From a virus (taxonomy: Duplodnaviria > Heunggongvirae > Uroviricota > Caudoviricetes): a DNA stretch of 10,574 nt. Position 1 is the first letter of the stretch. Each line of letters begins with the position of its first letter. Position numbers and translations under genes: made by a program. Positions 4,852 through 8,678 of this stretch are shown one piece after another. The DNA lies in IMG/VR virus record IMGVR_UViG_2703718859_000027; one strand, written 5' to 3'. The notes beneath the pieces were generated by a model. That model had not been told where the DNA came from. It saw only the letters and a list, made by a program, of their open reading frames with translations, and did no database searches.

Positions 4852-5040
4852 TTATCCAGCCGGTGTTTCGTTATTCAGGTACAGCGATACTTTTTTTAAC
4901 GGGAGGCATTCACCAGAAATTTTTTGCTCGTCTCTTGCCTGGAGGCAGGATTCTTTACTGGCATAAATTCCGGTAATCACATTCTGTGATTCACCCGTTA
5001 TAAGAAAAACCGTCATCACCAGTGCAAATGCTGAAGTCAT
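4852..5040 (-). CDS. Small secreted/membrane protein, YdfD-like (Qin prophage lysis-protein family) candidate
   Basis: 62-aa ORF with hydrophobic N-terminus MTSAFALVMTVFLITG (signal-peptide-like). Its ATG (5040..5038) overlaps the dicB stop (ATGA), as for ydfD downstream of dicB in Qin. Family assignment is from memory of YdfD, not alignment. Confidence 0.6.
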   Translation of the reverse strand: MTSAFALVMTVFLITGESQNVITGIYASKESCLQARDEQKISGECLPLKKVSLYLNNETPAG

Positions 5041-5225
5041 TGACGTTCTCCGAAAATACCAAGTTCAAGAAGGGCAATTCTGGAGAGTATGGAATTATCA
5101 TTGAGAAGATAAGGCTCATATTTTCTCATCTTAATGGCATCTTCAGTAAACTCCCGGTTACTGAGCAGAACACCAATATCAAAACACCCTTCAGACGTAT
5201 TAACGTTTGGTAATAACGTTTCCAT
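5037..5225 (-). CDS. dicB: DicB-like cell-division inhibitor (MinC-dependent FtsZ-ring inhibitor of Qin/Kim prophage type)
   Basis: 62-aa ORF METLLPNVNTSEGCFDIGVLLSNREFTEDAIKMRK; N-terminal half closely matches E. coli K-12 DicB (MKTLLPNVNTSEGCFEIGV...FTEDAINKRK, from memory). GAGGA Shine-Dalgarno upstream. Confidence 0.85.
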   Translation of the reverse strand: METLLPNVNTSEGCFDIGVLLSNREFTEDAIKMRKYEPYLLNDNSILSRIALLELGIFGERQ

Positions 5226-5235
5226 TATCGCGTCC

Positions 5236-5793
5236 TCAACAATGAATTTTTAGTAATTGCTCCACAGTCATATTTTTAATTGCGCTCCGGTTTACAAGAG
5301 TCCAGCCTTGTTTCTCCAGATAAAACTGGAAGGTATCCAGGGTGCAGACCATTGCACCATCAGGAACGGTTTCAGTGAATTTGATATTGCCGTGTTCGTC
5401 GAGACGGATAACCAGGGTACGTCCGTCCCCGTGAATCATTTTGTCGGGAGACGGGGCGTTATTCTGGCGCAGTTCTTTCTCCATGCGATCGAACTCAGCG
5501 ATGTAGGCTTCTTTAAATGCAGCGGCTTTTTTGCCGGTGAAGCCCATCACCAGGAAAACGAAGCCGTTTTTGGTGATTTGGTACATAGGGAGTTTGCGCC
5601 CGGTTGAGTCGGTATATTCACTGGGCGAAAAATTTCGCTCAGTGAATTCTGCTGAACAGTCTAGACGTGAAATTTTTGCCAGTACATCTTTGTGTGGTTT
5701 CCGGAAATACTCGGCAACAGCTAAAGAGGATGTAACAGCACGCCCATTGGCGATAGTAATTTCAGGGTGAGAAAGGGCAGGGATAGTAGCCAT
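5236..5793 (-). CDS. Rha-family phage regulatory protein (N-terminal pRha domain plus about 85-aa C-terminal domain)
   Basis: Segment ITIANGRAVTSSLAVAEYFRKPHKDVLAKI...KLPMYQITKNGFVFLVMGFTGKKAAAFKEAYIAEFDRME matches the Rha/pRha domain (memory of PF09669). Start chosen at ATG 5793..5791 (MATIPALSHPE...) because a perfect GGAGG lies 8 nt upstream (5806..5802). The track ORF extends in frame to an ATG at 6087, so a 283-aa alternative exists. Confidence 0.8.
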   Translation of the reverse strand: MATIPALSHPEITIANGRAVTSSLAVAEYFRKPHKDVLAKISRLDCSAEFTERNFSPSEYTDSTGRKLPMYQITKNGFVFLVMGFTGKKAAAFKEAYIAEFDRMEKELRQNNAPSPDKMIHGDGRTLVIRLDEHGNIKFTETVPDGAMVCTLDTFQFYLEKQGWTLVNRSAIKNMTVEQLLKIHC

Positions 5794-5957
5794 GATGGCA
5801 GCCTCCATGATGAATTTCATTAACTCACCACCGGAGGTAGCAATCTCATGGGTGGTGAGACGCACAGGGTTGCTACAACCGGTCATCATGGAACCCGGCC
5901 AGCCTTGCGGCTGCCCTGCACGCCCCACCATAATCTGAATGTGGCTGTGCATTACGC

Positions 5958-5982
5958 ATAAAAAAACCGCCTGAGCGCGGTT
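5958..5982 (-). terminator. Candidate rho-independent terminator (minus strand)
   Basis: Minus-strand RNA reads AACCGC-GCUCAG-GCGGUU followed by UUUUUAU. It lies inside the in-frame upstream extension of the Rha ORF and downstream of dicF. Confidence 0.45.
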
Positions 5983-6202
5983 ATGCGCCATGATGAACAT
6001 CGGGGTAGCAATCCCGGCACCCGCTTTATGAGGTGCAGGTGCACTATAATTCCACCCGTTCTGGTTTTCAATAGCTACATTCAACATTTTCTCTTACCTT
6101 TCATCACCGAAGTGAACTTTGTCGATGCAGTGCCTGGTGCCTCCAGGTGACGTTAACCAGTTAACAATTAACGCCGGAATACAGAAGTATGCCCGTTACG
6201 CC

Positions 6203-6227
6203 CCGTAAAAGACCACTTTACGGTTTT
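6203..6227 (+). terminator. Terminator-like hairpin plus T-run on the plus strand
   Basis: CCGTAAA-agaccac-TTTACGG followed by TTTT on the plus strand (7-bp stem). No plus-strand gene is upstream, so its role is unclear. Confidence 0.3.
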
Positions 6228-6278
6228 AACTGTTCCGCGTGCGCTTAGCCGCATTCACCGCATCACAAAATTCACTTT

Positions 6279-6331
6279 AAAAAGGGTGGCAGAGCAGTCA
6301 CGGAGTAGAACTGATGCCACCAAAGACTACA
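6279..6331 (-). ncRNA. dicF: DicF-like sRNA (ftsZ-targeting antisense sRNA of Qin-type prophages); 5' seed differs from K-12 DicF
   Basis: Minus-strand sequence CUUUGGUGGCAUCAGUUCUACUCCGUGACUGCUCUGCCACCCUUUUU matches the 3' two-thirds of K-12 DicF (…GUUUGGCGGUAUCAGUUUUACUCCGUGACUGCUCUGCCGCCC, from memory), including the terminal hairpin GGUGGCA…UGCCACC plus U-run. Sits upstream of dicB as in Qin. The 5' boundary is approximate. Confidence 0.8.
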
Positions 6332-6799
6332 CATGGGTATTGTGGCGGGGCTGTCACTTAAGCGTATGGTCAACCTGACAACCCGGTGCATTTTCTGGAG
6401 CAATGGAGGAAACCCCAGCCATACTTACCGCCGCGCCATTTCGCGGATTGCCACAACCGGAAGCGCACGGTCGAAGAAATCTAACGACAAGCCTTCTAAG
6501 GGAAAGAGCTTCGCCGTACGCTTTCGCGTTGTGTGCCTGCTTTTAACCACGTCAGGCGAGGTGGTTTCCGTCGTTCCCCAACGACAGGAAATCTGTATAA
6601 TCTGGATATCCCCAACAACAGGAAGGTGTTTTATATGGTGGTTCAAAAGAATTGTTCAGGTACTGGTAAGCCTGCGGACAGGGCGGACATTCCGAATACC
6701 AGGAAACATATACCTGAGAAAAACATACGACCAAAACCATCTCCAGCTCCTTCAGAGGAGAGGGGGAACAGCAACAATCAAGCAAGCAGGTGATGATAT

Positions 6800-7246
6800 A
6801 TGGACCGGGATGATATTCTTGACAGGGTTTTATATGGCTATTTTCTTGAACAACTATTCTCTGTAGCGACTGGTCGTCTCGATAAACTTCTCTCAGTGGT
6901 GAGTATTATCCTCGGTTCATCTGTCATTGGTGGATTTATTCCTGAAGTTTCTGGAGTTCTCATTGTTGTGATAGCAACCGTTCAAACGATTTACGGATTC
7001 GGACAAAAGTCAGGTAACGCAATGAGAAAATCCGCAGAATATCTGCAGCTTTATGATGATGCAGAAAAATATTCCGATTCGGAATTGAAAATTCAGTTAA
7101 AGCTTCTGGAAAAAACAGATGATAATATTTGGTCGTCGCTTAAAGATATCGCAATCTTAAAAACCCGGATCAAAATAGGAATCTCCGTAGAACAACAAGA
7201 GAAACTGTCTGCAAAATCCAAATTGATGCGATTCCTTTGTGGTTAG
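6800..7246 (+). CDS. Small two-transmembrane-helix membrane protein of unknown function; candidate superinfection-exclusion / abortive-infection effector (SieB-like position, SLATT-like architecture)
   Basis: 148-aa ORF in an AT-rich segment, with AGGTGA Shine-Dalgarno 6 nt before the ATG at 6800. Two hydrophobic helices (LLSVVSIILGSSVIGGF and GVLIVVIATVQTIYGF) followed by a charged helical tail. Transcribed opposite to the surrounding early-left operon. Confidence 0.7.
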   Translation: MDRDDILDRVLYGYFLEQLFSVATGRLDKLLSVVSIILGSSVIGGFIPEVSGVLIVVIATVQTIYGFGQKSGNAMRKSAEYLQLYDDAEKYSDSELKIQLKLLEKTDDNIWSSLKDIAILKTRIKIGISVEQQEKLSAKSKLMRFLCG

Positions 7247-7344: not shown

Positions 7345-7497
7345 TCAGTCAGAGTTTCTTGCTAACCAGCGACGCGCGCCAGCTGCGGTTTTAAACGTTT
7401 TGCTTCTGGTATACGTCATCGCGGTAAACGTGCCGTCCTGGTTGGGAAACACGCCGCATACCAGAGATTCGTTGTTGCCAAGATTGAGCGTATCCAT
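7345..7497 (-). CDS. Small early-operon protein (50 aa), possibly YdfB-like (Qin prophage small protein)
   Basis: ATG at 7497..7495 with GAGG 5 nt upstream. Translation MDTLNLGNNESLVCGVFPNQDGTFTAMTYTRSKTFKTAAGARRWLARNSD, stop TGA at 7347..7345. Below the 60-aa cutoff of the supplied track. First gene downstream of the PL-like promoter; the family call is from uncertain memory. Confidence 0.5.
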   Translation of the reverse strand: MDTLNLGNNESLVCGVFPNQDGTFTAMTYTRSKTFKTAAGARRWLARNSD

Positions 7498-7770: not shown

Positions 7771-8058
7771 TCAGATAGAGAAGGGAAATTGTCGGCGAGC
7801 ATGTGTCACGCTTACAATCTCAATGCTTGAAGCAGCTACTCTGTACAGGATTATGTAGTTAGGGTGGGTCACTATCTCTCTCAACCCAGAAACCCGTTCG
7901 CTTGGTGGATATAGGTACGGATGCTCAGATAGAGGTAATACCGATGTTTCAATACGTATTTTAAGTCTACGCGCTGCCGGTGGGTTCTCCTTGGCGATGT
8001 AAGTTATGATCTGACGCAAATCATCGCGAGCAGATGGTAGCCATAAAATGGGCAACAT
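7771..8058 (-). CDS. parE: ParE/RelE-superfamily toxin (ParE2-like) of a three-component prophage toxin-antitoxin module
   Basis: 95-aa ORF MLPILWLPSARDDLRQIITYIAKENPPAARRL...YIILYRVAASSIEIVSVTHARR with the ParE/RelE pattern. Its start overlaps the antitoxin stop (ATGA at 8058). Confidence 0.88.
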   Translation of the reverse strand: MLPILWLPSARDDLRQIITYIAKENPPAARRLKIRIETSVLPLSEHPYLYPPSERVSGLREIVTHPNYIILYRVAASSIEIVSVTHARRQFPFSI

Positions 8059-8249
8059 TACTCGCTCCTGTTAGTTACAGCAATTTGAGCAATAAGATTT
8101 TCCATTTCAGCTATTACCTCGTCATGTGGAATTGCGGGGCGAGGGTCTGCAAGGCTTGACGCTACTTTAGCGCGCAACCATTCGTTGTAACTGTTTTCTT
8201 GTTCGATAGTTTCGAATTCTGAAACTATCGGAGAAAGGGCTGTACTCAT
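8058..8249 (-). CDS. paaA2: PaaA2-like antitoxin (small, intrinsically disordered ParE antitoxin)
   Basis: 63-aa ORF MSTALSPIVSEFETIEQENSYNEWLRAKVASSLADPRPAIPHDEV..., matching my memory of E. coli O157 PaaA2. Immediately upstream of and coupled to the ParE-like gene. Confidence 0.82.
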   Translation of the reverse strand: MSTALSPIVSEFETIEQENSYNEWLRAKVASSLADPRPAIPHDEVIAEMENLIAQIAVTNRSE

Positions 8250-8276
8250 GGCATAACTCCTCTTCTTGTACTGTGG

Positions 8277-8678
8277 TCACGCCCGGCGGCTTTTTTGTGC
8301 CGCCAGCCACCGGGCAATGGTTTCTTCCATTGATTTTTTTTTGTCTTTGATTTCTTGAAGCATTTTTTCTTGGTCCTCCTCAGGGAACGCACTAAAAGCC
8401 TGGAGTAATTCGCGTTGGCGAGGACCAATTTTCATCGTGTTAGGGGTGAACATTTGCTCCCCCTCTTCAGGAGGCAATAAAAACCAATGCAACGGATGCC
8501 CTGTAACCTCAACCAGTTTATCCAAACTTGAGGCTTTAGGTGTAGCCTTACCGCTGACCCATTGTTGAACAGTTTGTTGTGTCACACCAATTCTACGGGC
8601 CAGCTCAGCCTGGCTCCATCCAGTTTCCTGAAGAAGCTTGCTGATTCTGTACATCGATACTTCTAGGGCGCTCATCAT
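8277..8678 (-). CDS. paaR2: CI-like prophage repressor, HTH XRE family (PaaR2/RacR-like), no S24 peptidase domain
   Basis: 133-aa ORF with helix-turn-helix LLQETGWSQAELARRIGVTQQTVQQWVSG. Divergent from the cro-like ydaS and heads the antitoxin-toxin operon. Start is ambiguous between the ATG at 8678 (possibly leaderless; TAAAAT lies 7-12 nt upstream) and 8654. Confidence 0.85.
   Translation of the reverse strand: MMSALEVSMYRISKLLQETGWSQAELARRIGVTQQTVQQWVSGKATPKASSLDKLVEVTGHPLHWFLLPPEEGEQMFTPNTMKIGPRQRELLQAFSAFPEEDQEKMLQEIKDKKKSMEETIARWLAAQKSRRA

Follow-up and report, generated by a model that had tools for sequence, protein, structure and literature searches.

The DNA analysed here, a stretch of 10,574 nucleotides from a Caudoviricetes record (IMG/VR IMGVR_UViG_2703718859_000027) that is called the window throughout, carries a DicF-family small RNA (sRNA) in which the DicF hairpin stands behind a 5' tail of the kind found in KilS, an sRNA of the prophage Rac. 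It is suggested, with a probability of roughly 0.7, that this element is a functional Hfq-type sRNA which has kept repression of ftsZ, has lost repression of xylR and has perhaps gained targets of the KilS tail, and that it represents a natural DicF/KilS mosaic. Transcription of the RNA would end at the element's own hairpin and U-run, its 5' end would come from processing or from an upstream start, and Hfq would bind it through the U-tail. The conserved hairpin and 3' region would still repress ftsZ, and probably manX and pykA as well, and the tail would either pair with the targets of the KilS tail or serve only as a linker. The allele would most likely have come from recombination among co-resident lambdoid prophages, which have near-identical flanks on both sides of the sRNA. 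It is a variant within the known DicF/KilS group of sRNAs and not a new kind of system.

Identity of the element

A sequence-only reading of the window had described a DicF-like sRNA whose body is conserved and whose 5' end diverges, and had proposed alignment to the Rfam DicF family. That description holds. An Rfam scan of the window matched RF00039 over 6335..6284, that is, over model positions 1-52 of 52, at 61.1 bits (E = 9.9e-12), which lies above the gathering score of 48 bits; K-12 dicF scores 76.7 bits against the same model. The sRNA at 6336..6284 reads CCATGTGTAGTCTTTGGTGGCATCAGTTCTACTCCGTGACTGCTCTGCCACCC and is followed by TTTTT at 6283..6279. Its counterpart in K-12 (dicF, b1574, NC_000913.3) begins TTTCTGGTGACGTTTGGCGG and reads in its entirety TTTCTGGTGACGTTTGGCGGTATCAGTTTTACTCCGTGACTGCTCTGCCGCCC; the K-12 5' end given in the earlier reading proved correct when b1574 was checked. 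Read position by position, 10 of the first 12 nucleotides (6336..6325) differ from K-12 dicF, while over nt 13-53 there are 37 identities in 41 positions and four changes. The coordinates first proposed, 6279-6331, clipped the first 5 nt of the tail; the strand, which had been left out, is minus.

The four changes in the body leave the structure in place. C18U and G50A are the two sides of a single stem pair (C18-G50 becoming U-A), U21C turns the U21.G47 pair into C-G with pairing kept, and U29C falls in the loop. When 22 distinct natural variants were compared, 99.2% of cells were paired as in the DicF structure; the pair 18-50 is C-G in 15 of the variants, U-A in 5, U.G in 1 and a mismatch in 1; the G.U intermediate of the stem change also occurs in natural copies. 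The hairpin has 7 + 4 bp and an 11-nt loop containing ACUCC, and runs into the U-run, which is expected from its sequence to act as the 3' Hfq-binding tail. Of the family features compared by sequence and computation (model score, hairpin, complementarity to ftsZ and to xylR, and operon position), complementarity to xylR is the one that is missing, and the element is a bona fide member of the DicF family. The coordinates of the element and of its surroundings are collected in Table 1.

Table 1. Features of the DicF-family element and of the surrounding prophage arm, in positions of the window
Feature	Position	Strand	Basis
DicF-family sRNA, 53-nt equivalent of K-12 DicF	6336..6284	minus	Rfam RF00039 and alignment to K-12 b1574; 5' end placed by alignment
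5' tail CCAUGUGUAGUCUUU, single-stranded	6322..6336	minus	Unpaired in MFE fold; alignment with Rac-type phages and K-12 kilS
Tail core AUGUGUAGUC, in place of the K-12 xylR-pairing tail UUUCUGGUGAC	6334..6325	minus	Matches KilS / Rac-type tail
Terminator hairpin	6285..6321	minus	Rfam structure line, MFE fold
Hairpin outer stem	6321..6315 with 6291..6285	minus	Rfam structure line
Hairpin inner stem	6313..6310 with 6298..6295	minus	Rfam structure line
11-nt loop UCUACUCCGUG containing the ACUCC anti-Shine-Dalgarno (pairs with ftsZ ribosome-binding site)	6309..6299	minus	Rfam structure line
U-run (TTTTT) of intrinsic terminator	6283..6279	minus	Sequence; layout as in K-12
Structured leader upstream of sRNA	6340..6470	minus	MFE and centroid folds of both precursors
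Conserved leader 3' of terminator	6110..6277	minus	Homology to the K-12 locus (L002, 2163-2592)
Ash/Rha-family regulator ORF, 283 aa, inserted between dicF and dicB	5236..6087	minus	Pfam PF10554, PF09669; absent from K-12 Qin
C4 antisense RNA match	5848-5935	minus	Rfam, 77.9 bits
isrK match	5960-6036	minus	Rfam, 64.7 bits
dicB, cell-division inhibitor, downstream operon member	5037..5225	minus	Pfam PF05358, E = 4.1e-37, full length
ydfA-like (DUF1391-type) gene, upstream operon member	7345..7497	minus	88% DNA identity to K-12 ydfA region; phrog_751
HTH repressor	8277-8678	minus	Three-gene module 7771-8678
PaaA2-type antitoxin (paaA2)	8058-8249	minus	Three-gene module 7771-8678
ParE toxin (parE)	7771-8058	minus	Three-gene module 7771-8678
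ORF, 148 aa, opposite strand within dicF operon, inside ~730-nt insert	6800-7246	plus	phrog_6315 (unknown function); long hydrophobic segment
DUF1482 gene, RecE-like exonuclease, excisionase-position DUF4224 gene and integrase, in this order beyond dicB		minus	

Origin of the 5' tail

When phage genomes were searched at high sensitivity for the variant, six records aligned from the tail onward at 77-80% identity, and in all four of these that were inspected the element lies directly upstream of kilR, the gene for the FtsZ inhibitor of Rac-type prophages. Alignment shows that the Rac-type elements carry (A/G)TGTGTAGTC immediately before the stem, and that their stem base, GGCGGCATCAG...CCGCCC TTTTT, and their downstream flank are as in the window; the loop, TTTTTTCTTGAAGTTCG, differs from that of DicF and lacks ACTCC. 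The counterpart in K-12 is annotated as the sRNA kilS (b4833, 1418405-1418502). Bar et al. 2021 (PMC8175672) predicted KilS, which lies in the kilR 5' UTR of prophage Rac, from Hfq RIL-seq data and verified it by Northern blot. They recovered yncL as a reproducible RIL-seq partner of KilS, and its transcription start site (TSS) and RNase E site have been placed at 1418502 and 1418471, respectively (PMC8175672). In our own mapping the RNase E site corresponds to nt 32 of KilS (GAC|AUUGCUGUGUGUAGUCC), 7 nt before the GUGUGUAGUC tail. Judged from this position, processed KilS would have the architecture of DicF, with a single-stranded tail of ~18 nt that includes GUGUGUAGUC followed by a terminator hairpin.

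The core of the window tail, AUGUGUAGUC, is identical to that of phage vB_EcoS-683R6 and one position (G for A) apart from that of K-12 KilS, and the KilS-type motif (A/G)UGUGUAGUC lies immediately 5' of the terminator stem in the window. The window carries the DicF loop UCUACUCCGUG and not the KilS loop UUUUUUUCUUGAAGUUCGG, and the element is followed by Ash/Rha and then dicB and does not occupy a kilR 5' UTR. On the DicF model KilS-type elements score 34-41 bits, under the gathering score. Because the new tail matches that of a verified sRNA, the 5' change is not random drift, and on the strength of the alignment the tail of the window is considered to be a KilS-type tail. As a target that might discriminate between the two tails, yncL was tried and rejected, with values of -13.7 for the window tail and -12.3 for the K-12 tail.

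DicF is not mentioned in the paper on KilS (PMC8175672). Our literature search found no paper naming both DicF and KilS, and a search of the literature by literal sequence found nothing relevant. The homology between DicF and Rac elements may not be new, since Faubladier and Bouché are said to have reported dicF-related sequences in other defective prophages in 1994.

Predicted pairing with DicF targets

It has been established for K-12 DicF that the two ends of the molecule serve different targets. Its 3' region pairs with ftsZ (the mutant DicF9 loses ftsZ regulation and the combination DicF23/ftsZcomp23 restores it), and its 5' end pairs with xylR (DicF3 loses xylR regulation and the compensatory DicF11/xylRcomp11 restores it); under DicF3 ftsZ is still repressed, and regulation of xylR and pykA is lost (PMC5069750). 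The sequence-only reading had assigned pairing with ftsZ to the first ~11 nt, which is wrong, because these published genetics place it in the 3' region and the 5'-end mutant keeps ftsZ regulation.

Our duplex computations agree with the published separation of the 5' and 3' pairing regions. Nucleotides 4-16 of K-12 DicF form a perfect 12-bp duplex with xylR +8..+21 (-16.7 kcal/mol, z = -3.3), a value reached by 0.9% of shuffled tails, whereas the window tail reaches about -7 kcal/mol at an unrelated site (z = +1.0), which is background, and has no complementarity to xylR codons 3-7, the published target of the 5' end. Against ftsZ -80..+40 (RNAduplex) the body of the window element gives -24.7 kcal/mol across the RBS GGAG, somewhat weaker than the -29.2 of K-12. 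With pykA the two bodies are level (-29.6 in the window and -29.4 in K-12), and at the coding-region site in manX the values are -29.3 and -35.1, respectively. The earlier suggestion of an altered target repertoire is supported at the level of computation: pairing with xylR is predicted to be lost, whereas the body is predicted to pair with ftsZ, pykA and manX as before. The only concrete shift in repertoire predicted here is thus the loss of xylR control.

One further match concerns manX, a validated DicF target. The stretch CCAUGUGU of the window tail (6329-6336) is a perfect 8-nt complement of ACACAUGG in K-12 manX +24..+31, 2 nt upstream of the known site for the DicF body, with -16.0 kcal/mol, and 3% of shuffled tails reach this value. 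It was set aside as probably due to chance, because 12 tests were run and the KilS tail scores at a different site in manX.

Reassortment of tails, loops and downstream genes

Elements in the collected IMG/VR loci were sorted by tail (A, K-12 type; B, KilS type), loop and downstream gene; the scans selected on part of the RNA, and all class counts are among the matches listed. Tail A with the DicF loop before dicB was found at at least 101 loci, and tail B with the KilS loop before kilR at at least 86. Other combinations comprise tail B with the DicF loop before kilR (at least 15 loci) or before dicB, as in the window (at least 10), tail A with the DicF loop before kilR (at least 5) and tail B with the KilS loop before dicB (at least 1). 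Among the matches listed, 7 of the 10 loci that share the combination of the window also have a spacer of at least 400 nt before dicB, which in the window is the Rha insert. A reciprocal chimera of K-12 tail and KilS loop was found at 0 loci in IMG/VR with one exact pattern, which a version with a GGCGGT stem would escape.

Samples anchored on the proteins agree with the reassortment seen in the IMG/VR loci. The KilR-anchored sample held 73 elements with tail B and the KilS loop, 4 with a tail variant, and 1 with tail B and the DicF loop; a third tail, CATGTTGATTACC, was present in 2 more. In the DicB-anchored sample there were 64 elements with tail A and the DicF loop, 9 with tail A and a short hairpin lacking the ftsZ loop, and 5 with tail B and the DicF loop, the last group including the G.U intermediate GGTGG...CCGCC. 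Across all loci compared, three hairpin types stand behind tail B and two behind tail A.

The short-hairpin form is represented in the DicB-anchored IMG/VR loci by L434, L449, L450, L457 and similar, where the K-12-type tail UUUUCUGGUGAU is joined to a short terminator, GGCGGAAACGGAUAUCCGCC, without the ftsZ-pairing loop. Judged by its sequence it would in effect be the opposite of the window allele, with the xylR arm kept and the ftsZ arm lost. Two other loci (L372 and L377) carry the third tail, CAUGUUGAUUACC. The left junction of the window (CCGCCACAAUACCC; CCGCCACAATACCCATGT) matches neither K-12 Qin nor KilS well and is closer to the lineage with the third tail, so that the description of the allele as a recombinant of DicF and KilS may simplify an older polymorphism or mosaicism.

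It is possible to read the same variation in another way, with the element acting mainly in cis, as an intrinsic terminator or attenuator that gates early-left read-through into rha-dicB (or kilR) and the tail as a neutral linker free to vary or be swapped. What the family conserves is the stem base (GGCGG...CCGCCC UUUUU) and the flanks, tails and loops being variable; a short hairpin without the ftsZ loop exists behind a K-12-type tail, and there is a third tail type. Among the matches listed the element is always in the leader of an FtsZ-inhibitor gene, and an inverted repeat spans the downstream leader. However, the K-12 DicF tail is a proven trans seed for xylR, supported by compensatory mutations (PMC5069750), and KilS is a stable RNA in Hfq RIL-seq with a trans partner (PMC8175672). 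The core UGUGUAGUC moreover recurs with three hairpin types, in a sample partly selected on the tail itself. We consider a mainly cis-acting role of this kind unlikely.

The functional mosaic sRNA that we favour could belong to a wider arrangement, in which DicF, KilS and related RNAs would all be parts of a single modular sRNA system of lambdoid prophages. The 5' seed and the hairpin-loop seed would be cassettes exchanged independently by recombination, giving each prophage a different combination of host targets, and the window allele would be a natural hybrid of DicF and KilS. This proposal is put forward tentatively, and we rate it at somewhat less than an even chance. If it is true, the hybrid couples ftsZ repression to the regulon of the KilS tail rather than to xylose metabolism, and genomes with both alleles have two DicF RNAs with shared and private sets of targets.

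Distribution of the allele

Alignment with many phage-contig copies limits the divergence to a patch of ~70 nt between flanks that are near-identical to those of K-12-type loci. It comprises five substitutions immediately upstream, a gap of 14 nt (in K-12, TCTGTTATCAATTT), the replaced tail and the stem changes. The variant is a discrete allele: 223 records of complete E. coli genomes match the element and its surroundings, 151 bp in all, at 99% identity or more, and the rows listed are all 100% identical. A 74-nt probe seeded by this allele alone (coverage at least 80%) detected the combination of KilS tail and DicF hairpin in 207 of 5,426 complete E. coli genomes, in every case in the chromosome, with E. 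coli 7/2 (NZ_CP023820.1, 1261286-1261359) among the carriers; the K-12-type probe was found in 3,969 of the 5,426. Most of the variant copies are clonal. In the phage collection searched, no deposited phage genome joins this tail to the DicF hairpin.

These figures bear on the view that the element is what is left of a dicF decaying without function in a cryptic prophage, its 5' change being damage in the form of a 14-nt deletion plus drift. In keeping with such a view, the 14 nt missing relative to K-12 include the mapped RNase E site, the operon is split by the Rha module and by an opposite-strand ORF, and RefSeq has no annotated feature under any copy of the variant. Decay is nevertheless hard to reconcile with stem changes that are compensatory and not disruptive, with a 74-nt probe that is at least 99% identical in 159 records, with a replaced tail that is non-random and matches that of a verified sRNA, and with neighbouring genes that have intact frames and full-length or near-full-length domain matches. 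It is regarded here as very improbable.

Four prophage-borne copies of DicF are known in E. coli O157:H7 (PMC7873438), and the sequence-only reading had proposed a comparison with them. In strain PV15-279, the only O157:H7 genome among the matches listed, the K-12-type probe matches at full length four times, in agreement with the published number, and the PPompW prophages of O157 match the window query from the stem onward only, without its tail. Because the four copies of PV15-279 are K-12-type, the PPompW prophages lack the tail and the label O157:H7 is absent from all 60 variant carriers sampled, the variant is not one of the EHEC copies. Both alleles occur together, in different prophages, in at least two genomes, NZ_CP022229.3 (strain WCHEC96200; 4138598 and 4665339) and in NZ_CM129853.1 (2938096 and 2507954).

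Several apparent matches were set aside. A seeming third class, of 82 genomes that match positions 34-74 of the probe only and include ST131, consists of the K-12-type tail with the U29C loop variant. Almost all of the 97 matches in a scan of genome contigs are due to chance, the core pattern having been over-degenerate, and matches in Photorhabdus and Vibrio were rejected as they have no stem and U-run. Real copies in that scan are confined to Escherichia, Shigella and a few MAGs, and all are K-12-type.

Leader, biogenesis and prophage context

The window comprises the left arm of a lambdoid prophage whose integration site is tRNA-Ser(CGA), beside mtfA; over 5.2 kb it shares 95-96% identity with the closest complete genome. 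The sRNA lies in the early-left operon, downstream of the DUF1391 gene and upstream of dicB, and two insertions interrupt the operon. The parts with homology to K-12 Qin are ydfA, dicB and 430 nt around dicF; the window lacks ydfB and ydfC, and its Rha module has been inserted.

In the predicted folds the upstream leader is closed by a long-range helix between UUGUGGC (6456..6450) and GCCACAA (6346..6340), and the single strand before the hairpin is UACCCAUGUGUAGUCUUU, of ~18 nt, as against ~31 nt in K-12. The K-12 RNase E context AAU|UUUCUGG falls, by alignment, within the 14 nt absent from the window, and it is the absence of these nucleotides that leaves only ~18 nt of single strand. The RNase E consensus was reportedly given as RN|WUU by Chao et al. 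in 2017, and in our own reading no clear match to this consensus was found in the remaining linker UACCCAUGUGUAGUCUUU. The position of the mature 5' end decides whether the tail is exposed as a seed.

The RNA could alternatively be a longer, KilS-like primary transcript of ~190 nt that starts near 6467, includes the structured leader and holds the tail internally, an account which overlaps with the one preferred here. By our reading, the region of the KilS TSS, GUGCGCCUCCGGUUGU, is homologous to ~6467-6452 (CCGUGCGCUUCCGGUUGUG), and a -10-like hexamer, TAGATT, lies at the position of TTAAAT in KilS. The TSS of KilS is ~45 nt upstream of its tail, and in the window a structured leader of ~110 nt separates the TSS homologue from the tail. 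A consensus promoter scan, however, found no promoter-like site near 6467, the RNase E site of KilS would release a short, tail-first form, and K-12 DicF is matured to 53 nt (PMC5069750). Such a transcript is judged quite unlikely.

Downstream of the terminator, 13-nt inverted-repeat arms at 6265-6277 and 6110-6122 (92% complementary) link the sequence after the U-run to the region just upstream of the next ORF start, an arrangement also present in K-12 before dicB. They probably form the RNase III duplex that yields the longer, 72-nt form of DicF, and processing could in this way be linked to translation of the gene that follows. Over the whole ~200-nt leader downstream of DicF/KilS there are sub-threshold matches to STnc100 (RF02076) of 31-44 bits, the gathering score being 47 (L225-L228, L002). 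The matches suggest that the Salmonella sRNA STnc100 may be the homologous leader of a kil-type gene.

The genes around the sRNA also have features of interest. The C4 and isrK matches lie inside the first third of the Ash/Rha ORF, with an intrinsic-terminator-like hairpin at 5982-5965, and the same stretch is matched by Pfam Phage_ASH (aa 14-109). Either protein-coding sequence here contains these RNAs, or conserved RNA genes have been translated into an apparent 'Ash' domain and start codon, and the true Rha protein starts further downstream. The module of HTH repressor, antitoxin and toxin occupies the position expected for the immunity repressor, and is followed by a terminator-like hairpin (7752-7737) and a promoter-like site (7705-7676). 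Because of this position, the repressor of the dicF operon may also regulate the toxin-antitoxin pair. The opposite-strand ORF has no Pfam match. It fills the slot held in Rac, between the DUF1391 gene and kilS, by the superinfection-exclusion gene sieB, and for that reason it may be an exclusion or defence gene.

Relationship to known systems and implications

With K-12 DicF of Qin (b1574) the window element shares the hairpin architecture, the ACUCC anti-Shine-Dalgarno, the U-run, the downstream leader and the slot between a DUF1391 gene and dicB. It differs in having the stem GGUGGC/GCCACC instead of GGCGGU/GCCGCC, in lacking the 14 nt with the RNase E site, and in lacking complementarity to xylR; as a locus, it differs from Qin in the Rha module with isrK-like and C4-like elements before dicB and in the replacement of ydfB and ydfC. 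With KilS of Rac (b4833) it shares the tail core (A/G)UGUGUAGUC, the stem base, the U-run, the downstream flank and a place in the leader of an FtsZ-inhibitor gene. KilS, in contrast, has the loop UUUUUUUCUUGAAGUUCGG without the ftsZ-pairing ACUCC, has no structured insert of ~110 nt, and precedes kilR and not dicB. Like the copies in the pathogenic O157:H7 the window element is an extra dicF copy borne by a prophage, but the four copies of PV15-279 are K-12-type. A further parallel is provided by OmrA and OmrB, sibling sRNAs that have one pairing or scaffold region in common but not another, and so control overlapping but distinct regulons. Siblings of that type arose by tandem duplication in the core genome, whereas in the present case the parts were exchanged between different prophages.

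DicF is a classic example of a prophage sRNA. Its 5' and 3' pairing regions have been separated genetically for the K-12 sequence only, and the allele is in this respect a natural domain swap, which retains the ftsZ arm and has a KilS tail in place of the xylR arm. Since ~4% of complete E. coli genomes hold a DicF predicted not to regulate xylR, results obtained with DicF of K-12 or EHEC should not be transferred to the carriers, and E. coli genomes with both alleles are natural strains in which shared and private targets could be compared. The allele also links DicF to KilS, and would offer a natural experiment on how the regulon of an sRNA changes by recombination rather than by point mutation.
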